A DNA stretch of 64,000 nt from an uncultured Polyangiaceae bacterium (lineage in GTDB: Bacteria > Myxococcota_A > Polyangia > Polyangiales > Polyangiaceae): the NCBI GenBank assembly GCA_964610275.1, contig CAZSVU010000005.1, positions 484-64,483 on the forward strand. Reading direction: 5' to 3'. Made by a program: the position numbers and the translations under genes. Of the stretch, positions 1,270 to 64,000 are shown piece after piece; position 1 is the stretch's first letter; every line of letters begins with the position of its first letter. The notes under the pieces are model-generated. The model did no database searches. It saw only the letters and a program-made list of their open reading frames with translations, and was not told where the DNA came from.

Positions 1270-4029
1270 ATGGCTGAACGTCCCCCGGAGAGCAGCGCCG
1301 CGAAGCGCTGGCACGTGGTCGCGCAGGACGATCTCGCCTCCGAGCTCGGGGTCGATCCGGATCGGGGTCTGAGCGACGGCGAGGTGGCCCAGCGGCTGGG
1401 GAAATACGGACGCAACGAGCTCGAGGAGGGGGGGCTGCGTAGCCCGGTCCGCATCCTCTGGGAGCAGTTCACCGCCACGTTGGTGCTAATCCTGATCGGG
1501 GCTGCCGTCATTGCCGGTCTGCTCGGCGAGCACAAGGACGCCATCGCGATTGGGGCCATCGTCGTCCTGTTCGGGGTGCTCGGCTTCGTTCAGGAGTACC
1601 GGGCAGAGCGCGCCATGGCTGCGCTCAAGCGCCTGGCGGTGCCGTGGGTTCGCGTGCGGCGCGGAGGGGCCGTCCGGGAGGTATCGGCGCGGGAGTTGGT
1701 GCCGGGTGACGTCGTCCTGCTGGAGGTCGGGAACGTGCTCCCAGCCGACGGGCGGGTGCTCGAGAGCGTCAATCTCAGAGTGCAGGAAGCGGCGCTCACC
1801 GGCGAGTCGGAGCCCGTCGAAAAGCGTCCAGGAGAACTCGGGGATCCGGAACTGGCGCTGGGTGACCGCACCAACATGGCGTACTTCGGCACGGTCTGCT
1901 CCTACGGCCGCGGGAGCATGCTCGTGGTGGAGACCGGGATGCGCACCGAGATCGGGCGCATCGCCGGGCTGCTCGGCTCGGTTGAAGCCGAGGAAACCCC
2001 TTTGCAGCGACGGCTCGACCAGGTGGGCAAGGTGCTGGCGCTGGTCGGCGTGGGCGTCGCGATCCTGGTGTCCGCCCTCGGGCTGCTCCGTGGTGAGTCG
2101 TTCCGGGACATGCTGCTGATGGCCGTGAGCATCGCGGTGGCCGTAGTGCCGGAAGGGCTACCGGCGGTCGTGACCATCACTCTGGCGCTGGGCGCGCAGC
2201 GCATGCTCAAGCGCAACGCCCTGATTCGGAAGCTACCTGCTGTCGAGACCCTCGGTTCCACGACGGTGATCTGCTCGGACAAGACCGGAACGCTCACCGA
2301 GAACCGGATGACGGTGGTGCTGGTGGACGTGGCGGGCCATCGAGTCGAGCTGGTGCAGCCGCTGCGCCGCGGGATGCCCACGCTGGACCCGGCGAGCGAC
2401 GCGCCCGAGTCGTCAGCCTGCAGAGTCGGAGGAGTCCGCCTGCTGCTGGCGGGCGGGGCGCTCTGCAACGACGCCGTGCTGGCGCGGGACGCGTCCGGAC
2501 AGCGGGGCCGCACCACTGGTGATCCCACCGAGGCCGCGCTGCTGGTGGCTGCAGCCCAGGCCAAGCTCCTCAAGGACGAGCTGGAGGCCGCGCTGCCGCG
2601 GGTTGCCGAGGCGCCCTTCGACTCCGACCGCAAGCGGATGACCACGGTGCATGAGGTGACGGACGGCCACGGCCCGCTGGAGCTTCCGCCCGAGCTCGGC
2701 CCGTACCTGGCGTTCACCAAGGGTGCCGTTGATGGGCTGGTCGAGCTTTCGAGCGCGGTCTGGTCCGAGTGCCGCACCGAGCCGATGAACGACGAGTGGA
2801 AAGCACGCATCCAGGGAGCGAACGACGAGCTCGCCGAGCAGGGAATGCGGGTGCTCGGCGTGGCCTTCCGTCCGCTTTCGGTACGACCGGACCAGCCGAA
2901 GCCCGCTGAGCTCGAGACGGAGCTCGTGTTCGTGGGAATGGTCGGCATCATCGATCCCCCGCGCGCGGAAGTGCGCGACGCCGTGGCCATGTGCCAGACC
3001 GCCGGCATTCGGGCGGTCATGATCACCGGAGACCATCCCAAGACGGCGAGTCGGATTGCCGTTGATCTGGGGATCACCGACGACGATCGCGTGATGACCG
3101 GCCAGACCCTGGAGAAGACGTCCGAAGCAGCGCTAGCGGAACAGGTTGAGGGTACAAGCGTCTACGCGCGCGTGTCTCCAGAGCACAAGCTCCGCATCGT
3201 GCAAGCCCTGCAGTCGCGGGGTCACGTGGTGGCCATGACCGGAGACGGCGTCAACGACGCCCCGGCCCTGAAGCGTGCCGAGATCGGGGTCGCCATGGGA
3301 CTGTCCGGGACCGACGTGGCCAAGGAGGCCTCGGACATGGTGCTGCAGGATGACAACTTCGCCACCATCGTGGCCGCGGTCCAGGAAGGCCGCACCATCT
3401 ACGACAACCTGCGAAAGTTCGTGAAGTTCTCCGTGGCCGGAAACCTTGGAAAGGTCGCGGTCATGCTGGTGGCGCCGGTCCCGGGCATGCCCTTGCCGCT
3501 CACGCCGCTTCAGCTGCTCTGGCTCAATCTGTTGACCGACGGCCTGCTCGGATTGGGCTTGGGGGTCGAGCCACCGGAGCGAGGTGTCATGCGGCGCCCA
3601 CCGTACTCCCCCCAGGGAGGCGTCTTCAGCGATGGCGGCGGACGACACGTGTTGTGGGTGGGGCTCACCATCGGTGCCGTCGCCCTGGGCCTGGGCTACG
3701 CGTACTGGCTGGCCGATCCCGACGGCAACTGGCAGAGCATGATTTTCACGACCCTGGCCTTCGCACAGGTCGCCCAAGCCCTCGCAGCCCGCTCGTCGCA
3801 GGATTCGCTGTTCACCCTGGGGCTCCGCTCCAACCTGGCGGCCACACTCATCACGCTCATGACGTTGGCCCTCCAGCTGACCGTGGTGTACGTGCCGTTC
3901 TTCCAGGGCTTTTTTGGGACCAAGCCGCTGTCCCCGGCGGACCTGGCCTTGTGCGTCGCCCTCTCCAGCCTGGTCTTCGTCGGCATCGAGCTCGAGAAGT
4001 GGCGGCGTCGGGTGGCGACCCGCGGCTGA
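1270..4029 (+). CDS. Cation-translocating P-type ATPase (P2-type, Ca2+-ATPase-like)
   Basis: 919 aa. It has the DKTGTLT phosphorylation motif, PEGLP in TM4 ([17 protein letters not shown]), [10 protein letters not shown], and the hinge [22 protein letters not shown]. Multiple C-terminal TM helices are present. Confidence 0.93.
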
Positions 4030-7954: not shown

Positions 7955-9913
7955 CTACCGCCCCACCAAATCGAGGACGTGCGCACCCTCGCGCACCCTA
8001 GCCATGCGACGACGCCCGTCGTCGGTCGCCAAGTAGCTGGGCATGAGTCGGGGCGGGGAGACGATCTTGCGGGCCAGTAGCTCGGTTACCAGGGGAACAT
8101 CGCGCAGCGCAATCTTCCCCAGGTAGAGTGGCTCTAGCTCGCCTCCCTTCTCCAGATGGTGCAGCACGGACTTCAAGCCGCGCAGGTAGATGAGGTCCTT
8201 GGTGAATCCGCCCCCGCGGAAGAGCCGCACGCAAACGTTGAAGGCAGTTCGAGGCGCGAACCCCCACCGGCGAAACACTCTGAAGACGTCCACGAAGCCG
8301 GCACTGTTCATCAACATCTCGGCGCCCAGCACCCGAGCGGCCAGGATCCTGATCCGCGCTGGGCTCAGACCGCCGCTCAAATACTCGGCCAGGATGGCCA
8401 GCCCCTCCTGCAGCTCGTCGTACCCGGCCAGGCCGGAGCGGAGTTGGGTGAAGCGCTGAGAACGTCCGTTGTGATAGGTGACGAGGTGGGTGCCAATCTC
8501 GTGATGCACCAACGCCTCCGCCTGCTGCTCGGCGACGCGGATGGTGTCCGACACCAGCAGCCGGCCGCGAGACACCATCAATCCGGCCACGACATCTGAG
8601 CGAACCTCCACCGACGCTTCGAAGCTCGGGTCCAGCTCGTGGTAGCTGGCCACTTCGCGCAGCGCTCGCTCGACCACATGCTGCGTGTCCAGGCGCCTGC
8701 GGGAACCCTCCTCGCGTGCGCCCGGTCCCAGTTGCTCGAGGATCTCTTCGGCCGTCCGCTTGAGCTTGGGCGTCACGGTGCCGTAGAGGGCCATGCTTCC
8801 GAACAGGAACCGAGGCGTGCCGCGGTCGACCAGCATGGTGATCTGCCGGTCGAGCTCCATTTGCTTGCGGAAGAAGAGCTCGGCCAGAGTTGGGTCCTCG
8901 ACGCGTTCGATGGGTACCGAAAATAGCTTGCGCTTGGCAGTCGTGGGATCGAATGGCAACGGCCGGTAGCGGAAGGGCGGCGGCTTCTCGAATTCGCCAC
9001 GGTGAAAGTTGTTCCAGAGATCGGAGAGATTCACTGGATTGACGGTGACCAGGAACTCGAATGCCGACGCCACTTCGTCGAGTTGCCGATCGACATCCCA
9101 GACGGCCTTGACCACCGCCCTCCGCCCGAGCACCTGGTAGTTCTTCGGTCGCAGGGTGGTTTGTTGCTCGGTGAAGCTGTAGAACGTCCGGCGGATCGCC
9201 CGACCCAGGCGTCCTCGGAGCGAACGCAGGATCATGGGGAACGCTTCGTTGCCCTCACGTCCCTGGTAGCTCGCCTCGATTTCCAGCCCCAGATGGGCGC
9301 AGTGAAGCTCCCGGGCTGCACTCAGTGAGAGCACCGACTGGCCGTAGGGGGGGCGGACCAGCTTGGTTGCGGCGACGCTGGCGCTGGCCTCGGACGTACC
9401 CACCGGCACGCGGGCGACGCGATGCGCGAGGATCTGGGCCATGTCCGCAGCTACTGGGTCGGACTTCGGGTAGTGGACGGTGAAACTCGCTTCGTCGACC
9501 TCGCCGGTTCGTGTCAGCGCGGGCGCGTCCTCGCTGGCAGGTCGAGACCAGAGCTCCAGCAGGAAGAAGCTGCCGAACTGTTCGAAAGCCAGCTCGGCCA
9601 GTGCGCGAATCAGTTTGCGTACGAACCGATCAGCAGCCGGAGTGGCAACGGCCGTGAGGTAGGCGGCCTCACTGATGACGAGCTCGTCCGTTCCTGGGTC
9701 GAGGCGGTCCGTCGGGCGCCGGTAGAGCAGCAAGAACGGTAGCAGGCGATCGACGTGCAATCGGCCGTGGCTGCCCAGACGGCGTCGCACCCTCCGATTG
9801 CTGCGGAGGCGGGTGCGCACCACGTCGATCAACGCGTCCAGGCGCGCGCCGTCGTCAGGGGCAACCGACGGGCGCTCGGTGCTTTCTGCTTCCTGATCCG
9901 GCATGGTTCGCAT
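7955..9913 (-). CDS. QEGLA-motif / DUF1704 family protein (MATCAP-like putative metallocarboxypeptidase, 'flavohemoglobin expression-modulating' family)
   Basis: 652 aa with a HExxH-type site (VHHEIGTHLVTYHNG). This is followed by ...LAGYDELQEGLAILAEYLSG..., the family-defining QEGLA motif. A long N-terminal extension precedes the conserved core. Confidence 0.8.
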   Translation of the reverse strand: MRTMPDQEAESTERPSVAPDDGARLDALIDVVRTRLRSNRRVRRRLGSHGRLHVDRLLPFLLLYRRPTDRLDPGTDELVISEAAYLTAVATPAADRFVRKLIRALAELAFEQFGSFFLLELWSRPASEDAPALTRTGEVDEASFTVHYPKSDPVAADMAQILAHRVARVPVGTSEASASVAATKLVRPPYGQSVLSLSAARELHCAHLGLEIEASYQGREGNEAFPMILRSLRGRLGRAIRRTFYSFTEQQTTLRPKNYQVLGRRAVVKAVWDVDRQLDEVASAFEFLVTVNPVNLSDLWNNFHRGEFEKPPPFRYRPLPFDPTTAKRKLFSVPIERVEDPTLAELFFRKQMELDRQITMLVDRGTPRFLFGSMALYGTVTPKLKRTAEEILEQLGPGAREEGSRRRLDTQHVVERALREVASYHELDPSFEASVEVRSDVVAGLMVSRGRLLVSDTIRVAEQQAEALVHHEIGTHLVTYHNGRSQRFTQLRSGLAGYDELQEGLAILAEYLSGGLSPARIRILAARVLGAEMLMNSAGFVDVFRVFRRWGFAPRTAFNVCVRLFRGGGFTKDLIYLRGLKSVLHHLEKGGELEPLYLGKIALRDVPLVTELLARKIVSPPRLMPSYLATDDGRRRMARVREGAHVLDLVGR

Positions 9914-30079: not shown

Positions 30080-38485
<8,406 letters not shown>

Positions 38486-50837: not shown

Positions 50838-52787
50838 TCAGTCCGGGGATGGGTCCGCCTCACCGCAGCACGAGGCACGTCGGAGCTCTTCGTAGTACTT
50901 CCGGAGTACATGAAATGCCTGCTTCTTCTTGCCTTGGTCGGAGACTAGGCCCTTGCGGTTCCAGTAGTCCTGAATTCTGGGTAGCGGACGTCGCGGCGAG
51001 CGGAAGTCGACCAGGATCCAGGGCGTCAGGCCGCGCAGGAACGGGATGCGTTTGAGCATTCTCACCTGCTGTTCGTACACGTTGGCTTGATACTCCTCGG
51101 TCCACCGTGTGAGCGGGTCTCCGTGCAGGCCCTGCAACGCCCCGGCCCCGAGCTCCGTGATGATGAGGGGCTTGTCGTAGCTCATCTTCCAGTTGGCCTT
51201 GCTGGCCTTGTCGGGCAGCCCGTCGTACCAGCCGAGATACTCGTTGCACCCGATCACGTCGAGCTCGGCTCCGAGTGGGTCGTCGATGAGCTGGGTGTTC
51301 TCCTCGATGGCCCGGCGCTCCAGCGCAGCGCTGACCAGCCGTGACGCGTCGAGGTGCCGAGCTGTTCGGACGAGCTTGGTCATGAAGCTCAGGCGTGCTT
51401 CCGTTCGCGGCGTCTCGTTGCCCACCGACCAGATGATCACCGAGGCGCGATTTCTGTCCCGAGTGATCATTTCGGTGAGCTGCTGTTGGGCACTGTGCAG
51501 CGTCGCCGGGTGGTCTCAGAGAATCGTCCAGTAGACCGGGATCTCCGACCAGACCAACATGCCCAGCTCATCGGCCACGCGGGTCATGTGTCGGTTGTGC
51601 GGGTAGTGGGCGAGGCGCACGAAGTTCGCGCCGAGCTCACGCGCCCACCCCAGGAGCTCGCGGGCGTCGGCTTCGCTGTGGGCACGGCCTTCTCGCAGCG
51701 GGGCCTGCTCGTGAATGGAGATGCCTCGCAAGAACACCGGCTTCTCGTTGACGAGAATGTCCTGCCCACGGACTTCCACCGTGCGGAACCCGATGCGCTC
51801 GCTGACGCGATCAGCCTGTGTCTGGAACTGGACGTCGTAGAGGCGCGGGCGCTCTGGTGCCCAGCGATCCAACTTCGCGGTCAGGGCGAACTCAGCGAAC
51901 CCACTGTCGTTCGTGCGCACGCGGGCCTTTGCCCCGACCTCGGGAATGTGGATGCTGACCTCCTGGCAGAGCTCCGGACCGTCCAGCTGCACCCACCCGA
52001 CGAGCTGGTGCTTTGCGGTTGCCTCGAGCTCAATCGAGTAGTCCCGAATGAACGTCCCGGGGACGCTCGCCAGTGATACGTCCCGCGTGAGGCCACCGTA
52101 GTTCCACCAATCCGTGTTGGTCGTCGGCACGCCCTCTCGGCGCCGCGTGTTGTCGACCTTGACGATCAAAAAGTTCTTGCCCGGGCGCAGCTGCTCCGTG
52201 ACCTCGAAGTTGAAGGGAGTGAAACCGCCCTCGTGCTCACCGAGGCTCTGACCATTGAGGGCCACCTTCGCGTCGTAGTTGGCTGCGCCGAAGTGGAGGA
52301 AGGTGCGGTGCCCGGGCTCGGGCTGATAGTCGAAGTCCGTCTTGTACCAGATGGTTCCCTCGTAGAAGAACAGCTCGCGCTTCTGAGAGTTCCAGTCCCC
52401 GGGCACCTGCAGTGACTCGCTCGCATCAAAGTCGTACTCCACCCGGTCCGACTTGGAGGTCGGCTTGGCGTTGGCAAAGTAGCTTTCTTCGATCTGCGGC
52501 TGACCGTGGTAGGTGCGGTAGCCCATCTCGTAGGGGTCGATGATGACGCGCCAGGCGCCGTTCAGGCTGAGGACCTGCCGAGCGGACACGTTCTGAATGA
52601 GGGGAACCGGTGCGACCATTGTTGTGACCCTCTCCATCGAAGGGTTGGATCGGGGTGAACCCAACTCGGGCGTCGCCGTGTGCGGAGACTGCACCGGTTG
52701 CTGGGGGCACCGTTCGCTCCCACCGCATCCGGGCGTCAGACACACGAACCACGCGAACGCTACGCAGTAGGCTCTCAAGGCAGACAC
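50838..52787 (-). pseudogene. GH2 glycosidase (beta-glucuronidase/beta-galactosidase-like) lipoprotein interrupted by one in-frame TGA
   Basis: Track ORFs 51516..52787 and 50838..51470 are in the same frame. My read across the gap is ...[46 protein letters not shown]... The stop is tca at 51516..51518 on the plus strand. GH2 motifs lie on both sides: GGFTPFNFEVT and WWNYGGLTRDV upstream, WSVGNE and IITELG downstream. GTG start; lipobox LTPGC. Confidence 0.8.
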
Positions 52788-52797
52788 CCGGAATGCC

Positions 52798-53409
52798 TCA
52801 AAACAGACCGGAGATGGTGCCGGCGTCGTCGACGTCGATCTTCAGCGCGGCGGGTTGTTTGGCCAGGCCGGGCATCGTCACCACGTCCCCGGGGTACACC
52901 ACAACGTAGATCTTCTGACTGATGGCCGTGATCTTGTCGACGATGGACGCGTCGAGCGGGTACTGGAACTCGAGCTCTGACGGCTGCTCGCAAAGCTCGC
53001 AGACTTTGTTCGCGAGCTCAGTCCCTCCGGCGCCCCCTGACTCTCGATAGTCCGTCACCAGCGCCTCCACGCCCGCCGCCCGACAGGCGCGTTGGATGTC
53101 GAGCAGGTCCTCGTCCGGGTCGCCGAGGAAGAGATTGATGGACACGAGCACCGGCAGGTACTTCTGAACCGAGAGCTCGAGGCCGGTGTCCTCGGCGAGA
53201 TCCTTCACCATGGCGGAGAGGTCCTCCAGGCGAAGCTCGGTGTCGGAAAGATCCACCACCATATACAGGGTAGACAGCCCGTGCAGCACGTCTTGCCGCA
53301 GATCCACGATGCTGCCACCGGCCTTGCCGATGGGCGCCGTGATGGTGCCCACCAGCCCCACCGCGTCGTGGCCGTGACCCTGAACGATGTACAGCCGCTG
53401 TCGCGCCAT
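52798..53409 (-). CDS. ACT-domain protein fused to a truncated, internally deleted formate-tetrahydrofolate ligase C-terminal segment
   Basis: ATG 53409 is preceded by GAGGAGGAG. Residues 1-85 are ACT-like (RLYIVQGHGHDAVGLVGTITAPIGKAGGSIVDLRQDVLHGLSTLYMVVDLSD...). Residues about 90-203 (…VLVSINLFLGDPDEDL…ESGGAGGTELANKV…IVDKITAISQKIY…VVTMPGLAKQPAALKIDVDDAGTISGLF) match my recollection of the FTHFS C-terminus. About 70 aa appear to be missing before the TMPGLP motif. Confidence 0.6.
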   Translation of the reverse strand: MARQRLYIVQGHGHDAVGLVGTITAPIGKAGGSIVDLRQDVLHGLSTLYMVVDLSDTELRLEDLSAMVKDLAEDTGLELSVQKYLPVLVSINLFLGDPDEDLLDIQRACRAAGVEALVTDYRESGGAGGTELANKVCELCEQPSELEFQYPLDASIVDKITAISQKIYVVVYPGDVVTMPGLAKQPAALKIDVDDAGTISGLF

Positions 53410-56503: not shown

Positions 56504-57130
56504 TCAGTCGTCGCCCAGCGTATCGGTCAGGAACGCGCACATCGCACCGAAAGCCCGTCGGTCGACGTCCGCTTGTGTTTCACTCGCGGCCTGCAGCGCT
56601 CGCTTTCCGACTTCGAGGGAATGGCTGCCGCCTTCGACGACGAAGAGCGAACTCTTGGCCTTCATCTTTTTGCGTACGCCCTCGAGCGCGTCGAGTGGGC
56701 ACAGCGAGTCGCGCGATCCCTGCACGAAGAGGATGGGAGTGTCCAGCTGCCTGAGGACCTCGTCGCGGAGTTGCGCGCGTTGGCTCATTCCGCGCAATGG
56801 GTAGCCCAGGCAGATCACTGCCGGCACGCGTTCTTCCAGTGCCAGGTGACAGCCCACCCGGGACCCCATGCTCTTGCCCACCAGCACCACTGGGCGCCGG
56901 CTTCGTCCGCGTGCAGCTGCGAGGGCCGCTCGGTGGGCTTCAATCAGCACCGGCAGCTTGTCCGGAGCCTTTCTCCCGGCTTGCATGTACGGGTAGTCGA
57001 AGGGCACCACTCGACCCAGCTTCCCGAGTAGCTCCGCCCACTTCACCATCCACGGATGAGAGGACGGAGCGCCAGCACCGTGCGCGAAGAGCAGGATGGG
57101 CTTTCCGGCCATCTTGCCCGGATCGGTCAC
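56504..57130 (-). CDS. Alpha/beta hydrolase (dienelactone-hydrolase / KANL3-Tex30-like)
   Basis: PILLFAHGAGAPSSHPWM..., nucleophile elbow VLVGKSMGSRV, ...FVQGSRDSLCP..., ...GGSHSL. Confidence 0.75.
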   Translation of the reverse strand: MTDPGKMAGKPILLFAHGAGAPSSHPWMVKWAELLGKLGRVVPFDYPYMQAGRKAPDKLPVLIEAHRAALAAARGRSRRPVVLVGKSMGSRVGCHLALEERVPAVICLGYPLRGMSQRAQLRDEVLRQLDTPILFVQGSRDSLCPLDALEGVRKKMKAKSSLFVVEGGSHSLEVGKRALQAASETQADVDRRAFGAMCAFLTDTLGDD

Positions 57131-57636
57131 GGCGCGACGATGCGCCCGGGCGCCCCGTTGGCCCCGGCCTCGGTGTGGCAGGTGTTGCAGGAGGCTTCGG
57201 AGAACTCGCTTGCCATCGCGTTCTCTTGACCACCCGAGACCACTCGGACCGTGTACGGCGGAGCGGGACTCGAGCCGGCGCTCAACGTGAAGTTGCCAGC
57301 CGCGTTGCTCGTCATCGAGAAGACCTCACCATTCGAGTCGGTGAGCTCGATAGTGGCGCCCGCCATCCCAAAGCAGTCGTTCGCCTGCCCCGACTCGGAA
57401 AACACCGTTCCGGCGACGGCGAAGCTCGGCCCTTCCCCGCGCTCTTGGTGACAGCCGATGCAGTCACGCCCCGGATGCATCAGCGGGCTTTCCTCGTCAC
57501 CACCGCCCCATTGTCTGCCGCTCGCACACACGTCGGTGGACACGTCGTTGATTGCCACTTCATCTTCCTGTTCGCTGTCCTCAAAACCGCAGGCGAAGGC
57601 GAGAAGGAATACGACAGGATAGATCGAGTACCGCAT
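57127..57636 (-). CDS. Lipoprotein with two CxxCH haem-binding motifs
   Basis: MRYSIYPVVFLLAFAC (lipobox). Haem motifs CIGCH and CNTCH. The central stretch is carboxypeptidase-regulatory-like (GATIELTDSNGEVFSMTSNAAGNFTL). The 3' end overlaps the hydrolase start by 4 nt. Confidence 0.7.
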   Translation of the reverse strand: MRYSIYPVVFLLAFACGFEDSEQEDEVAINDVSTDVCASGRQWGGGDEESPLMHPGRDCIGCHQERGEGPSFAVAGTVFSESGQANDCFGMAGATIELTDSNGEVFSMTSNAAGNFTLSAGSSPAPPYTVRVVSGGQENAMASEFSEASCNTCHTEAGANGAPGRIVAP

Positions 57637-58863: not shown

Positions 58864-59133
58864 GTGGGCGAGGTCATTTCCTTCACTTGCACTGGTTGCG
58901 GGTACCGCGCTGAGCGCCTCCCGTTGGGGCCGGCGCCGCACCCCGATCGATTCGACCCGGTGCTGGCGAGTTGCGCCGCGTGCAAGCGGCTCACGGTCGT
59001 ACACCGCCCCAAGGTGGGGGCCGGCTGTCCCAAGTGTGGCAGCGCGCTCAGAGTCGAAGATGAGACCGAGACCGTCGACTGTCCGCGGTGCGGCAGCAGG
59101 CTCGAACGCGAGCTGGCCGCGATCTGGGATTGA
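58864..59133 (+). CDS. Possible 89-aa double zinc-ribbon protein
   Basis: From GTG 58864 the product is VGEVISFTCTGCGY...ASCAACKRL...GAGCPKCGSAL...VDCPRCGSRL, with four CxxC pairs. The start codon is uncertain. Confidence 0.4.
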   Translation: MGEVISFTCTGCGYRAERLPLGPAPHPDRFDPVLASCAACKRLTVVHRPKVGAGCPKCGSALRVEDETETVDCPRCGSRLERELAAIWD

Positions 59134-59317: not shown

Positions 59318-60184
59318 TCAAACCTCGGCGCCCGTCACCACATTGAACGCCTTGACGACCGGTGGATTGTCACCGACTGCCACGGAAATCCTGATTTCCG
59401 CGTACTGCAGCGACAGCGTCTCGACCGAAGCTTCGCTGAGCGCGCCGCTGTTGCCGACCTCGTACCCGGACACGAGTATTTGCTTGAGCCTGTACTCGGT
59501 CGTGGTGACCACGCCACCAGTCTCGCTGACGAGCGTGATGAGCGCTTCGGGAATGTGGGTGCCTGTCGCAGTGTTCAGCAGCAGTAGGGGGGACGAAGCG
59601 TCGATTCTCTTCGTGACTTTGAATTCGGTGAATTCCGACCTGCCGGCGCTGGCTCCCGTGGCCACGTGGTCGGTGTCGACCTGCGCTGCCCCGAGCCCAA
59701 ACGAGAGGATCGGGATGTCGTCGCCTAGCCCCGCAAGCTTGATGGTGCCCACGACATCCTGGTTCTGCGAAAGTGGTCCGTAGCCGGGTGGACCAGCGGG
59801 TCCCTCCGGTCCTTCCGGGCCCTCCGGTCCGGGCGGACCTGCCGCGCCCGGGCTTCCAGTCAGGCCTTGAGCCCCCTGCGGCCCGGGCGGACCAGCGGGT
59901 CCCTCGGCTCCCGGTTCACCGGCGGGTCCTGCAGGACCTGCCACACCTGCCGGACCCTGAGGCCCGACCTGGTTCCACTGCACCGGGGTCTCTCTGCGCC
60001 CGCATGCCGCCCTCTCGGACACGATGCGGACGCGGCCTGAGCCCTCGTCGACGCAAGCGCGAATCACCCCGTCTGGTCCCACGATGGCTGCGCTGGCCAC
60101 GGCGGCCAGCCCGAGCGCCGTGAGCATGCCCAACAGACCGACGACCACGCGACCACGCTTCGATTTGGGGAACGACAAACGCAT
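59318..60184 (-). CDS. Secreted collagen-triple-helix-repeat protein with C-terminal Hcp-like (T6SS tube / phage tube fold) domain
   Basis: AGGAGG lies 7 nt before ATG 60184. The N-terminus is a signal/anchor ([21 protein letters not shown]). There are 20 uninterrupted G-X-Y triplets (aa 74-133, nt 59786..59965). The C-terminal 150 aa or so (…[12 protein letters not shown]…[39 protein letters not shown]…[14 protein letters not shown]…[14 protein letters not shown]…) aligns by eye with Hcp1 (…IDVLAWSWGMSQ…VNVQDLSFTKYIDKSTPNLMMACSSGKHYPQAKLTIR…LKEVLVSSVS…NVTLNFAQVQVDY). Confidence 0.8.
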
Positions 60185-60538
60185 CTAGCACCTCCTGTGG
60201 GTGCGGAACCTACATCGGTACAGATCCGTTCGTCCAGGGGAAGACAGAGCCCACGCAGGCGTCCGATTCGATGGAATTTTCGGCTGCGGGGTGACGGCCT
60301 TGGTTCACCCAACAGAGCACTAGTGCCCTGTCTCGGAAGTAACAATCCATGAACGCGCCGTACCGCATGATTGTGGGACTCCCAGGTGGCTGTCGAGATA
60401 GGGCACATGACGCACCGAAGGTGCCGCATGAAAGACAGGGTGCTCTGGCTAGATCGCAGCGGAGCTGTCCTCCGCCGGGCCGCCACCCTCGCGTTCGGCC
60501 CGGCGGAGGACAACGATTGCGACTTGTGAGACACAGCA

Positions 60539-62542
60539 CTAGCCCGCGTGTTCGCAGCAGCCGAGGTCCGGGGCGCCCACGCTGTCGTCGTTGATGCCCG
60601 GGATCTCCATGCCGCGGTCGATGTTGGGGCTGTCCGCTCGGAGAGTGAAATCCCCGGCGGCTGCGTCGACCAGGCCCGGGTCGTCTTCGTGACCATTGCA
60701 CTCGAGCGCGGTGGCCTCGCAGAGCTCTGCTGCGGTGTCGTAGCGCACGTTCTCCCACTTGAAGTGTGGCTCGTCGGCACCACGAGTGGTGTGCCAGTTG
60801 TCCCAGTCCCAGTCGTGACCCGTGTTGCCTTCGAACGACACCTCGAATGCGTAGCGGGTGCCACTGAAGACGTTGTTGCGCAGGGTGCTGTTGTGCACCT
60901 CGCTACCGATGGTCATGGCGTTGCGTCCCTCGCCCCCTTCATCCACCCAGGAGGTATTGTGGTAGATGAATACCACCCCGTCCGACTCGATGCCCCACTT
61001 GAAGCTGGTGCTCGCGAAGTTGGAGAAGACTGAGCGTAGCACCCAAGCTGGTCCGTGGGTGATGGGTGCGAGCGACATGCCCACCAGCCCTTGGTCGAAC
61101 GTATTGTCACGAAAGCGATGGTTGATGCACGCGCCCTCGGGTTCGAAACCGTCGTCCCCGATGAAGCGGATCTGGTTATCGTACACATCGACGTCGTGGG
61201 CGATTTCCACGTTTTCGAGATCGCCCCAGCGACCCGTGTACACGCCATTGAAGAAGTGGTGAATGTCGTTGCGGCGCACGATCGCGCCACGGTGGCTGGC
61301 CACCGAGATGGCCGAGCCTTCCATGCTGGTGCCCTTGACCGCGTCCCAGGGCCAGGCCTCGACCGGCGGGTCGTAGATTTCGTTGTCTTCGATACGAGTG
61401 TCATTGCTGCGGTTCGGGTCCTCGGCCGTCCAGTTGACGGTGATTCCGTCCGGGACCCCGTGAATGGTGTTCTCGCGGACCACCACGTGCGACGCATTCT
61501 TGAGGTAGATCCCCTGCGACCACTCCGCCTGACCGTAGAAGCGGATCTCGAACCCCTCGATCCAGATCCAGTCTTGCGCATCGACCTCGAAGGCGCGACT
61601 GAAGCGCGGGAGCTGCCAGGAGTGACTGCGCGGGTCGTCGAGGCATCTGACCCAGAGGGTGGTCTCGTCGGGATCGACGTAGAAGCCTTCGTCCATGGGC
61701 ACGTCATCGTCGCCGAGCCCCGCGAGGAGCCCATCCAGATCGTTGAAGCGGTAGAATCGCTCCTCGTCCCGAGCCAGATACCAGAATGAGCCTCCGGCCT
61801 CGGCACTGTACACGTCGGTCACGGAAGCGTGCGGCGTCCAGGTGAGCAGCGAGGTCAAGTGCTCGGCACCGTCGAGGACGGCGCCGTCGCCTTCGGCACT
61901 GATCTGAACCCAGTCATTCTCCGCCCCGGAGACGTCGACGCTGACCGACTCGTGGTAGACCCCATCGGCTACCAAGACGCGGGTGCCCGGCCCAGCGGAG
62001 TTCACCGCTGCCTGGATGGTCCGAAACGGTGCGTCTGGGCTTCCGTCGCCACCGGCGGCGGCTGCCGCGTCGACGTGGAGCGTGGTCGCAGGCGAGAACG
62101 AGAGTTCCTCGGGTTGGGTCACGACGGTCGTGCATGCGTCCACGCCACTGCCCGCAACGCGCACGTCATAATCCATGGCGCCCTCCAGCCCGAACAAGCT
62201 GCCCGCCAGGCGCCCGTCGTCGATGCGGACGACCGGATGTCCAATACGCCACCCCTCGGTCCCGCTCCCGGCGGCCCGGTACCAGAGCTCGGCGCTCTCG
62301 GGCACCTCCCTGCCACTGACCACCACGCCGACGGTCTCGATGTTCGCGATCAGATCTAGGTTTCCCGTGCCGCCCGAGCACACCGACGGAGCGCCCGCAG
62401 TCCCGCCATCGGGCCCAGTCGACTCCGAGTCTCCGGCCGTGCCCTGGCCGTCTTCACCAGCAGCGCCATCCTCGCCACCACACCCACTCAGCGCCAACGT
62501 CGCGATTAGCGTGCCCGCAACCTGCCTGACTCGATCGTCCAT
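60539..62542 (-). CDS. Right-handed parallel beta-helix repeat lipoprotein (pectate-lyase-fold)
   Basis: Lipobox LALSGC. ...GSPDAPFRTIQAAVNSAGPGTRVLVADGVYHESV... Successive rungs follow: VRENTIHGVPDGITVNW, IEDNEIYD, VRRNDIHHFFNGVY, VYDNQIRFIGDDGFE, FRDNTF. Confidence 0.75.
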   Translation of the reverse strand: MDDRVRQVAGTLIATLALSGCGGEDGAAGEDGQGTAGDSESTGPDGGTAGAPSVCSGGTGNLDLIANIETVGVVVSGREVPESAELWYRAAGSGTEGWRIGHPVVRIDDGRLAGSLFGLEGAMDYDVRVAGSGVDACTTVVTQPEELSFSPATTLHVDAAAAAGGDGSPDAPFRTIQAAVNSAGPGTRVLVADGVYHESVSVDVSGAENDWVQISAEGDGAVLDGAEHLTSLLTWTPHASVTDVYSAEAGGSFWYLARDEERFYRFNDLDGLLAGLGDDDVPMDEGFYVDPDETTLWVRCLDDPRSHSWQLPRFSRAFEVDAQDWIWIEGFEIRFYGQAEWSQGIYLKNASHVVVRENTIHGVPDGITVNWTAEDPNRSNDTRIEDNEIYDPPVEAWPWDAVKGTSMEGSAISVASHRGAIVRRNDIHHFFNGVYTGRWGDLENVEIAHDVDVYDNQIRFIGDDGFEPEGACINHRFRDNTFDQGLVGMSLAPITHGPAWVLRSVFSNFASTSFKWGIESDGVVFIYHNTSWVDEGGEGRNAMTIGSEVHNSTLRNNVFSGTRYAFEVSFEGNTGHDWDWDNWHTTRGADEPHFKWENVRYDTAAELCEATALECNGHEDDPGLVDAAAGDFTLRADSPNIDRGMEIPGINDDSVGAPDLGCCEHAG

Positions 62543-62624: not shown

Positions 62625-64000
62625 TCACCGCCACGCCTCGTAGATCTCCGCGTTGCCGTTGCGATTAGAGGCGAAGACGATGTACCGCAGATCCTCCGAC
62701 GGCCAGGGATCGAACTCATCGTTTGCCGTGTTGATCCCGCTGAGCGGCTGCGCGGGCGAGAACGGGTCGCTGAGCGTGGCGCGCTCAGCGTAGAAGATGT
62801 CCTGTCCGTTCACTCGATTTCGGTCCGAGCAGAAGACGATCACGCGCCCACCCAGCACGAAGCGACCAGCGTACTCGTTGGCAGCGGTGTTCACTCCGGG
62901 AATTGGCTCCGGAGGTCCCCAGGAGTCAGTCACCGTCGCGCGCGTGGTCTGGTACAGGTCGTGACCACCCGCTCCACCCGCGCGGTCCATTTCCAGCACC
63001 ATGAGCAATCCGGACTGAAGCACCTGGGGCGCTACCTCCTCGGATGGCGTGTTCAGCTCGGTGACCGCCGCCGGCGGGGCCCAGGTGCTCGTTCGGTCAG
63101 CGCGCGTGGACATCCAGAGGTCGTACTGTCCCACGGCCCCGGGCCGAGTGCTGGCAAACCAGATCGTGAGACCGTCGCCCTCGATACCGGGGGTGGTGTC
63201 CTGGTAGCCACTACTGTTGAGCTCGTTGATGGCATGCGGCGGTCCCCAGGGATCCGACGGTGTTGCGCGAGTGGACACCCAGAGGCTGTCGTCGTTGGGG
63301 GAGGATGTGTCCCGGTCGGTGTTGAAGGCGAGCTCGAGCAGATCGGCGGTGACGGTGGGATCGTCGTCGAATGAGCTGGCGTCGGCTAGCGCCTCGACCA
63401 ACGCGGGAGGCTCGAAGGTGACCACCCCCAGGCCGCCCGCGCTCCCACCTGATCCGCCCAGCTGTGCCTGGTCCCCGCCCACACCCGCGCCCGCGGTGCC
63501 GCCCGTGCCCGTGCCGGCGGCCCCACCCACCGCGGCTCCGGCTGCGCCTGCCGCGCCTCCGGCGTCACTGCCTGCCCCGCCGGCTGCACCGCCCACTCCC
63601 ATGGGGCTGCCTGCTGTGCCTCCGACTGCCGGGCTCGAAGCGCCCGCTCCGGCCGCCCCGCCTTCTGCCCCACCCCTGCCGTCGCCAGCCGCCCCGCCCG
63701 CTGCAAAGGTGTCGCCTGCAGCTCCGCCGACGCCCGGGGTCGCCAGCCCGCCTCCCGCGGCGCCACCGGCGTCTCCGGCCATCGCTCCTGCGGCGCCTCC
63801 GTCGCTCACGTCACTCGCGACGACGGTCAACGCAGCCTCCAATCCGTCGGTGTCGCCGCTCGGAGACGTGACCGTCAAGTCGTGCTGGCCCACCGGAAGC
63901 CCGTCCGGAACGACGATGGCCAAGGTCGACTCGTCGACTCGCGTGGCGGGCTGATCGACCACGTCCGTTCCGGGAATGGTGAAGCGCCAGCCTCGCCTGA
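62625..64000 (-). CDS. IPT/TIG-like + Gly/Ala-rich linker + PD40 (TolB-like) beta-propeller repeat protein; N-terminus outside window
   Basis: The frame stays open upstream of the track start (63962) to the window edge (…RFTIPGTDVVDQPATRVDESTLAIVVPDGLPVGQHDLTVTSPSG…). A roughly 130-aa Gly/Ala linker follows. After it come repeated ...LWVSTRA...W.PP..I.ELNS... blades (DLWMSTRADRTSTWAPPAAVTELNTP; DIFYAERATLSDPFSPAQPLSGINTA; IVFASNRNGNAEIYEA). Confidence 0.7.
   Translation of the reverse strand, partial: RRGWRFTIPGTDVVDQPATRVDESTLAIVVPDGLPVGQHDLTVTSPSGDTDGLEAALTVVASDVSDGGAAGAMAGDAGGAAGGGLATPGVGGAAGDTFAAGGAAGDGRGGAEGGAAGAGASSPAVGGTAGSPMGVGGAAGGAGSDAGGAAGAAGAAVGGAAGTGTGGTAGAGVGGDQAQLGGSGGSAGGLGVVTFEPPALVEALADASSFDDDPTVTADLLELAFNTDRDTSSPNDDSLWVSTRATPSDPWGPPHAINELNSSGYQDTTPGIEGDGLTIWFASTRPGAVGQYDLWMSTRADRTSTWAPPAAVTELNTPSEEVAPQVLQSGLLMVLEMDRAGGAGGHDLYQTTRATVTDSWGPPEPIPGVNTAANEYAGRFVLGGRVIVFCSDRNRVNGQDIFYAERATLSDPFSPAQPLSGINTANDEFDPWPSEDLRYIVFASNRNGNAEIYEAWR

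Follow-up and report, generated by a model that had tools for sequence, protein, structure and literature searches.

A collagen-like and Hcp-fold fusion protein of an uncultured Polyangiaceae bacterium and its relatives at loci without type VI secretion genes

Hcp (TssD), the tube protein of type VI secretion systems (T6SS), is regarded as a marker that is diagnostic of type VI secretion. Typical members such as Hcp1 (PA0085, PDB 1Y12) of Pseudomonas aeruginosa are stand-alone proteins of about 160–170 amino acids (aa). In the extended "evolved" Hcps (Hcp-ET), the Hcp domain is fused to another module, a C-terminal toxin which is delivered by the T6SS. The bacterial collagen-like proteins BclA (Bacillus), Scl1 and Scl2 (Streptococcus) and Lcl (Legionella) are secreted proteins in which an uninterrupted G-X-Y stalk is located between globular domains. 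We describe here a gene which combines an Hcp domain with such a stalk. It is located in a stretch of 64,000 nucleotides (hereafter the window) of the 65,193-base contig CAZSVU010000005.1 from an uncultured Polyangiaceae bacterium (GCA_964610275.1) and encodes a protein of 288 aa. The original prediction, made from the letters of the window, had read it as a fusion of a signal peptide, a collagen triple-helix region and an Hcp-like domain, of an architecture not seen described before. The fusion is real: the open reading frame (ORF) is intact and Pfam finds both domains. A literature search, with subscription-only literature outside its reach, found nothing on collagen–Hcp fusions, tandem Hcp domains, secreted Hcp-like proteins or Hcp-like proteins in Planctomycetes.

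The 288-aa protein consists of four parts, a signal-peptide-like N-terminus, a two-cysteine β module, a collagen stalk and a C-terminal Hcp domain (Table 1). An identical 288-aa protein is present in the public protein collection, where it is assigned to a 65,193-bp NCBI contig. The long N-terminus is taken as the true start of the ORF because an AGGAGG motif lies 6 nt before the ATG. The scan for promoters and terminators gave nothing decisive; a single weak promoter-like site was found at 60367-60396 (−). The AlphaFold2 model of the protein, built from a family alignment of 22 sequences, reached a mean pLDDT (predicted local distance difference test) of 77.7.

The assignment of the C-terminal part to Hcp was reached by both profile and structure searches. 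Pfam T6SS_HCP (PF05638) matched aa 143-266 with E=1.8e-20 and 74 bits (cut-off 23.5), and the hidden Markov model (HMM) of the family itself gave 158.7 bits across aa 137-287. A phmmer search of the PDB sequences matched Hcp1 of P. aeruginosa (1y12) with E=6.5e-12, along with other Hcp proteins. In the AlphaFold2 model, the pLDDT of this part is mostly 84-97, with two loop blocks in the 50s-70s. Its Foldseek matches in the PDB were almost exclusively Hcp structures (5xhh, 1y12, 7fcf and 4tv4 at the top) with E of 5e-10 to 1e-8 and target template modelling (TM) scores of 0.7-0.8. Phage tail-tube proteins in BFVD matched the head far more weakly (best E=2e-5, TM ≤0.58). Because the Hcp matches far outdo those of the tail-tube proteins, the head is assigned to Hcp proper and not to a generic phage tube fold. 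The Hcp-like domain of about 150 aa in the original prediction, and the Hcp or tube fold that it expected for about aa 140-288, are thus supported for about aa 137-288, and the Foldseek comparison that it suggested, with Hcp1 and phage tube proteins, came out clearly for Hcp1. The glycine-rich loop and the K-x-(I/V)-D-x-x-S-P-x-L motif of Hcp are kept in the family alignment, and K192 and D195 are invariant among the 22 aligned homologues. The NCBIfam TssD model TIGR03344, on the other hand, gave only 32.7 bits (cut-off 58.9) and so does not call the protein a T6SS tube subunit.

The N-terminus of the protein resembles a cleavable Sec signal, as had been predicted. Five K/R residues give its n-region a net charge of +5; next come a hydrophobic core without charges and, at aa 31-33 (ASA|A), small-x-small sites, and AlphaFold2 places a low-confidence helix at aa 9-30. 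The same layout was found in all 31 family members by a heuristic rule with three demands: the n-region is net-positive or very short, the Kyte–Doolittle maximum over 10 residues reaches 1.8 or more, and a small-x-small site precedes the conserved module. This module usually begins about 5-14 residues past the last small-x-small site in the 31 members. The h-regions of several relatives are short (12-17 residues), as in cleaved signals rather than membrane anchors.

The cysteine-containing motif noticed in the original prediction is part of a conserved module for which AlphaFold2 predicts three β strands (40-46, 52-55 and 65-71; pLDDT about 90). I41, C44, G50, R53, C61 and E65 are invariant among the 22 aligned homologues and W70 is found in at least 90% of them; in the alignment of the module alone, C10, C27 and W36 are invariant. 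The motif I-x-A-C-[VY]...G..R-[IV]-[IV]...C...E...W-N spans aa 41-71, and the G-X-Y repeats start directly after it. The run of repeats is uninterrupted, as predicted, although it consists of 21 triplets and not of 20. Proline accounts for 18 of its 63 residues, and Pfam Collagen (PF01391) matched aa 74-132 with E=3.6e-9 and 36.7 bits (cut-off 27.2), so that both families whose presence the prediction had proposed to check scored above their cut-offs. The pLDDT is low over the collagen stretch, as is expected of a monomer model.

The cysteine-module motif was found by a loose regular expression in at least 82 of the 120 best matches of the word-indexed search, most of which carry other C-terminal domains or short unknown heads. 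Heads found behind module and collagen include the phage tail-collar domain PF07484 (Collar), the lamin-tail domain PF00932 (LTD), PF18998 and PF07603. The members of the module have no Pfam family, and a profile of 40 modules matched nothing among the PDB sequences. Signal peptide, cysteine module and collagen stalk thus make up a cassette which is widespread, uncharacterised and combined with interchangeable heads, Hcp being one of them. This corrects the original prediction. The shared leader, module and stalk place the 288-aa protein in a large class of secreted bacterial proteins that are collagen-like and modular in build.

Comparison with the described systems shows where the protein departs from each of them. 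Its C-terminal 150 aa share both the fold and the sequence family PF05638 with Hcp/TssD, whereas its signal peptide, cysteine module, collagen stalk and total length set it apart from the tube subunits, as do its score under the TssD cut-off, the lack of T6SS genes nearby and its relatives in Actinomycetota. Three features of a T6SS tube subunit are thereby missing at the sequence level: the protein has a signal peptide (by the heuristic rule), it lacks the stand-alone form with a length of about 165 aa and it scores below the cut-off of the TssD model. In contrast to Hcp-ET, its extension is N-terminal and consists of a structural collagen stalk with an export signal. It differs from BclA, Scl and Lcl in its head, which has the Hcp fold and is neither C1q/TNF-like nor a V domain, in lacking LPXTG or another recognised anchor, and in its N-terminal cysteine module, which those families do not have. 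Matches to collagen proteins in NCBIfam and the PDB fall on the collagen part only, and the NCBIfam equivalogs NF038329, NF038330 and NF046116 (Scl1/Scl2, Lcl) gave 27-38 bits against cut-offs of 325-500. On these scores, it can be classed as a bacterial collagen-like protein in the general sense, outside the named Scl, Lcl and BclA families.

The protein is not a singleton but belongs to a family of about 30 clusters. Word-indexed and profile searches together gave about 30 protein clusters which share signal peptide, cysteine module, collagen and Hcp; 24 collagen–Hcp clusters were among the best 120 matches of the word-indexed search (19 recognised by both Pfam domains and five by triplet count). 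All four elements recur in the 22 aligned homologues, and the closest relative among the matches listed, P0002, is 59% identical. Some relatives, in metagenome-assembled genomes (MAGs) of Polyangiaceae and Anaeromyxobacteraceae, are named "type VI secretion system tube protein Hcp" by annotation pipelines. The family is thus conserved and mis-annotated in databases. Two scans did not extend it: no relative was found by the scan of viral contigs with the Hcp domain, and that of species-representative genomes, which used a P0001/P0002 pair alignment with poor patterns, gave nothing but two collagen proteins that are unrelated, one of an actinobacterium and one of a Dehalococcoidia MAG.

The original prediction had stated that no T6SS, phage-tail or contractile injection system (CIS) genes are visible in the window, and had asked whether such a cluster just beyond it could explain the gene. 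The Pfam scans agree with the statement. Of the 43 genes called in the window by codon usage, nearly all the sizeable ones were scanned (a few small genes and most of a 2801-aa repeat protein were judged by eye only), and no T6SS, phage-tail or CIS family was found. The family HMM, run on the six-frame translation of the window, gave no second Hcp-like domain, and there is no second collagen run. Neither T6SS nor phage-tail nor CIS genes were found at any of the 10 distinct loci of relatives examined, none of which shows synteny with the window, so that local linkage to a T6SS is missing in the window and at the relatives' loci alike. Loci L001-L016 hold no second Hcp-like gene, and a metagenome scan gave only another contig of the P0002 organism, with upstream genes unlike those of the window. 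The collagen–Hcp gene is a stand-alone unit.

A sister architecture extends this observation beyond the diderm bacteria. P0011 and P0125 have the same leader, a variant of the cysteine module, 30-34 G-X-Y triplets and two Hcp domains, and proteins encoded next to them cluster at ≥90% identity with proteins of MAGs of Candidatus Nanopelagicales, an order of Actinomycetota. To our knowledge, no T6SS is known in Actinomycetota, a monoderm phylum. Of all arguments that the architecture functions in the absence of a T6SS, the strongest is the occurrence of collagen with two Hcp domains in this phylum.

Many more Hcp domains were found in tandem. An exhaustive search of 1.84 billion representative proteins with a profile of the family's Hcp domain gave 19,632 matches at E≤1e-3, and its top ranks were mostly occupied by long proteins with tandem Hcp domains. 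The 145 new top representatives contained one (12 proteins), two (22), three (9), four (12), five (13) or six (73) full domains, and none contained more than six. Four cases with nominally 7-8 domains do not break this limit: in three of them, short partial matches (about 50-70 residues) follow one another, and the seven unevenly spaced stretches of the fourth, P0158, look like split domains. Many of the four- and five-domain entries begin inside a domain or have space for another. The ceiling is meaningful because proteins with more domains would score higher and rank first. The collagen-bearing proteins never contain more than two Hcp domains: 32 of them have a single one and 15 have a pair. 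Many of these 15 fall into the same 90% cluster; at 50% identity, about eight of them are distinct. Together with a trimerising collagen, the copy numbers of 1, 2, 3 and 6 are consistent with six Hcp domains closing into one unit.

The six-domain proteins (P0137-P0150 and others, such as the one encoded at L017:8084-11461) are about 900-3600 aa long, with a period of about 167 aa, and many start with the motif LE.LE.R.LLS. Both six-domain contigs examined (L017 and that of P0139) have planctomycete-type neighbours (PSCyt, PSD1). The domain count suggests that these proteins may be single-chain Hcp rings. A PKMT-like methyltransferase gene adjoins the multi-domain Hcp genes on Planctomycetota-like as well as Candidatus Nanopelagicales contigs and was seen with all three multi-domain families examined (Table 1). 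Its product contains Methyltransf_23/11/12/25/31, PF10119 (MethyTransf_Reg) and PF21782 (WHD_PKMT) domains and occurs in two versions which are 33% identical (E=3e-46); the copy at L005 looks broken into frames. No such gene was found by tblastn in the window or at the single-domain collagen–Hcp loci.

We tentatively propose, with somewhat less than even confidence, that the 288-aa protein is a Sec-exported, T6SS-independent, collagen-stalked protein whose Hcp heads form a six-domain ring, in this case from two trimers. After export, the signal peptide would be removed, probably after A32. The N-terminal β module would fold with a C44-C61 disulfide and cap the N-terminal end of the stalk, which three chains would form as a collagen triple helix. 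The rise of such a helix is 0.286 nm per residue, and the 63 residues would span about 18 nm. Each chain would carry its Hcp-fold head about eight residues after the helix, the heads would keep the ring-forming habit of Hcp, and the six heads of two paired trimers would close one ring. Relatives would arrive at six domains by other routes, with collagen and two Hcp domains per chain (3 × 2) or with six tandem domains in one chain (1 × 6). Assembled in this way, the protein would be a stalked ring, or a unit from which fibres form, of the envelope or matrix. Its likely role is structural, scaffolding or adhesive, as an oligomer of the cell envelope or the extracellular matrix.

Several known assemblies resemble parts of this proposal. 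The closest analogy for the relatives with collagen and two Hcp domains is offered by VgrG and the gp27–gp5 hub of phage T4, trimers with two tube-fold domains per chain that build a pseudo-hexameric ring coaxial with a trimeric rod. The relatives would be a reversed analogue, since their rod is N-terminal and the ring C-terminal; the rod is collagen and not a β-helix, and an export signal is present. For the protein of the window, which has a single tube-fold domain per chain, the comparison extends to the tube fold only. Engineered Hcp1 fusions (GspE–Hcp1, 4KSR/4KSS; Vps4–Hcp1, 6AP1; TrwK–Hcp1, 7O42) also combine an N-terminal passenger with C-terminal Hcp1. As the PDB entry of the GspE–Hcp1 fusion is titled a hexamer, this topology is compatible with a ring, although such artificial proteins show only that it permits ring formation. 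Collagen stalks with globular heads are arranged in higher-order bouquets in C1q, collectins and adiponectin, the last of which forms dimers of trimers via N-terminal cysteines; these proteins are eukaryotic and their heads unrelated, so that they serve as an analogy only.

A number of observations weigh against the proposed ring. A trimer with single domains provides three heads and not six, and the pairing of two trimers is a step that we purely infer. A linker of about eight residues may not allow a canonical ring. The first Hcp strand of the 288-aa protein lacks the GES..D..HK loop of canonical Hcp1, which some relatives keep, and with this loss the ring contacts may differ. The AlphaFold2 model of the relative P0011, with collagen and two Hcp domains, reached a pLDDT of 39.8, at which the packing of its domains is unreadable. 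As to export, cleavage of the signal peptide rests on heuristics, and the Sec pathway in a diderm host reaches the periplasm only. Myxococcota commonly have T6SS, and one may be encoded elsewhere in this genome, beyond the 64-kb window; a T6SS sheath structure of M. xanthus was among the Foldseek matches in the PDB. The gene neighbourhoods are not conserved and give no functional clue.

The same objections lead to an alternative in which export and stalk are as proposed and the heads form a three-headed globular knob instead of a ring of six. The knob would nucleate and register the triple helix and bind a ligand or a surface, comparably to the heads of BclA and C1q. A trimer supplies exactly three heads, the linker is short and the canonical N-terminal loop of Hcp is missing, while the many unrelated heads carried by the same cassette (PF07484, PF00932, PF18998 and PF07603) speak for a generic logic of stalk plus head. 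What such a knob hardly explains is that the tandem relatives stop sharply at six domains and the collagen-bearing ones at two per chain, which would be difficult to understand without a closed six-domain unit. Moreover, solved Hcp proteins, the chains of which are the top fold matches of the head, are described as hexameric rings in the literature (PMC13035841). We consider the knob less likely than the ring, although it is the main alternative to it.

Much less room is left for a specialised Hcp of the T6SS, with an N-terminus that is uncleaved or irrelevant, which would be loaded into, or cap, a tube encoded elsewhere and carry the collagen as an extension or effector. The match to the Hcp family is genuine, the pipelines name relatives accordingly, orphan hcp genes are common and T6SS are frequent in Myxococcota. 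However, the signal-peptide-like N-terminus in 31 of 31 members, the absence of T6SS genes from the window and from the 10 loci of relatives, the sister architecture in Actinomycetota and the score under the TssD cut-off are all at variance with it. Known extended Hcps are extended C-terminally and not N-terminally, and a trimeric rod of 18 nm per subunit would be hard to fit in a sheath. In our opinion, this explanation is very improbable. Still more improbable is a remnant or moron of a phage, a tailocin or an extracellular CIS, combining a collagen-type tail fibre with a tube-like domain, since the matches which point to it, those of the collagen region to PHROG tail-fibre families and of aa 156-267 to the uncharacterised phage family phrog_27303 (E=6e-8), together with the tube fold shared by phage tails, are outweighed by the compositional nature of the PHROG collagen matches, the far better fit to the Hcp fold than to the phage tube, the lack of phage or CIS genes in the window and at the relatives' loci, the viral contig scan, which gave no close relatives, and a Sec signal atypical of virion proteins.

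The proposal of an exported six-domain ring can be widened to the tandem proteins, as a possibility that we regard as rather doubtful. Hcp-fold rings might have a second, T6SS-independent life as exported modules of the extracellular space or the envelope, with six-fold stoichiometry encoded in four gene architectures, multi-domain forms tied to the neighbouring PKMT-like methyltransferase, and a phylogenetically broad secreted class mis-annotated as T6SS tube subunits. The four routes to six would be one chain with six domains (mostly with Planctomycetota-like N-termini), two chains with three domains each, a collagen trimer of chains with two domains each (in Actinomycetota and others) and, in the Myxococcota protein, two trimers of chains with one domain each. 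This broader tandem-Hcp family may be of more interest than the single gene.

Upstream of the gene and on the same strand, the secreted β-helix and PD40 neighbours were found as described in the original prediction (Table 1). Because the relatives' loci do not keep them, they are uninformative on function. Other genes of the window encode a P-type ATPase, histidine kinases, response regulators, a GGDEF protein, MscS-type channels, CorA, a MATCAP/DUF1704 protein, an FGE-sulfatase-like protein, CdaA, an AAA protein, GlgX, a sigma-54 activator, an OmpA-like lipoprotein, an amino-acid permease, PFK, a β-lactamase-fold protein, an α/β hydrolase and a HAD hydrolase. A Polyangiaceae MAG encodes a PFK with 77% identity to the one in the window. 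Scans with PADLOC found no defence-system match for the gene or its neighbours, and nothing was found by Rfam and tRNA scans of the window.

An ORF of about 89 aa at 58864-59133 (+), absent from the codon-usage gene calls, converges on the 3' end of the collagen–Hcp gene. It has two CxxC pairs and matches Zn_ribbon_LysW best (E=8e-7), followed by DZR (E=6e-4). A DZR protein is also encoded near P0121, past the ECF sigma and anti-sigma genes in another arrangement, which may well be a coincidence. The zinc-ribbon ORF was considered as a partner of the gene and set aside, given its weak matches and the different position and orientation at the P0121 loci. A secreted 169-aa protein (57127-57636, −), encoded two genes downstream of the target region, contains two CxxCH haem-binding motifs (CIGCH and CNTCH) and a CarboxypepD_reg-like domain.

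A few other genes of the window deserve a record. The 2801-aa secreted protein (30080-38485, +) consists mostly of TIGR02232 (myxo_disulf_rpt) Cys-rich acidic repeats, seven copies of which were found in a 300-aa slice (E=1e-70), with non-repeat regions in its centre. By these repeats, the contig can be recognised as one of Myxococcota. A GH2 gene is split over two adjacent ORFs, 50838-51470 (−) and 51516-52619 (−), the upstream one with the N-terminal sugar-binding part and the downstream one with the TIM barrel's end; a frameshift, a pseudogene or an assembly error could account for the split. The 203-aa ORF at 52798-53409 (−) contains an ACT domain and a fragment of formate-tetrahydrofolate ligase (FTHFS; profile positions 367-456 of 556). 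A truncated FTHFS, a remnant of one or an odd fusion could explain this combination. A 652-aa protein (7955-9913, −), encoded next to the GGDEF gene, matches Pfam MATCAP (PF08014, the microtubule-associated tyrosine carboxypeptidase family) with E=2e-91.

Table 1 Features of the collagen–Hcp gene and its surroundings and gene neighbourhoods of its relatives
Feature	Location	Strand	Remarks
Collagen-stalked Hcp-like protein (P0001)	59318..60184	−	Complete ORF, ATG start, 288 aa + stop
Shine-Dalgarno AGGAGG	60191..60196	−	Read from sequence; 6 nt 5' of ATG at 60184
Signal-peptide-like N-terminus, aa 1-32	60089..60184	−	12 aa / 17 aa / ASA|A
Two-cysteine β module, aa 33-73	59966..60088	−	Conserved residues and AlphaFold2 strands
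Collagen-like region, aa 74-136	59777..59965	−	21 uninterrupted G-X-Y triplets
Short linker and C-terminal Hcp-fold domain, aa 137-288	59321..59776	−	Pfam match aa 143-266
β-helix/DUF1565 protein	60539-62542	Same as target	Upstream; Pfam
PD40 protein	62625-63998	Same as target	Upstream; Pfam
PKMT-like methyltransferase gene	L017:11619-13190	−	
PKMT-like methyltransferase gene	P0139 contig 2120-3691	−	
PKMT-like methyltransferase gene	L014:11410-12684		
PKMT-like methyltransferase gene	L015:8989-10263		
PKMT-like methyltransferase gene	L016:4453-5727		
PKMT-like methyltransferase gene	L005:11661-12335		
P0017 neighbourhood			Toxin-antitoxin genes, kinase
P0006 neighbourhood			Radical SAM, RCC1, kinase
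P0002 neighbourhood			HNH-like protein, membrane protein; second contig with different upstream gene
P0121 neighbourhood			Divergent ECF sigma, zf-HC2 anti-sigma, DZR
P0058 neighbourhood			Peptidase S9, PAP2
P0036 neighbourhood			CutA1, hemerythrin
P0133 and P0125 neighbourhoods			Carbonic anhydrase, MFS, methyltransferase
P0139 and P0137 (six-domain) neighbourhoods			PSCyt/PSD1 genes, methyltransferase

Knowledge of the collagen–Hcp family bears on the use of Hcp as a marker, since naming its members "T6SS tube protein Hcp", or counting them in T6SS censuses that rely on hcp, would be wrong. The tube fold would have been recruited here for an extracellular role which is independent of the T6SS. 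The N-terminal cysteine module is of interest in itself, being both very widespread, as a leader in bacterial collagen-like proteins, and uncharacterised. The series of domain copy numbers (1, 2, 3 and 6), taken with trimerisation by collagen, represents a natural experiment on how a six-fold ring is encoded and may be useful for protein design, in which Hcp1 already serves as a hexamerisation scaffold. If the wider reading of Hcp-fold rings as exported modules is true, these proteins would constitute a phylogenetically broad class of secreted ring proteins that has gone unrecognised so far.

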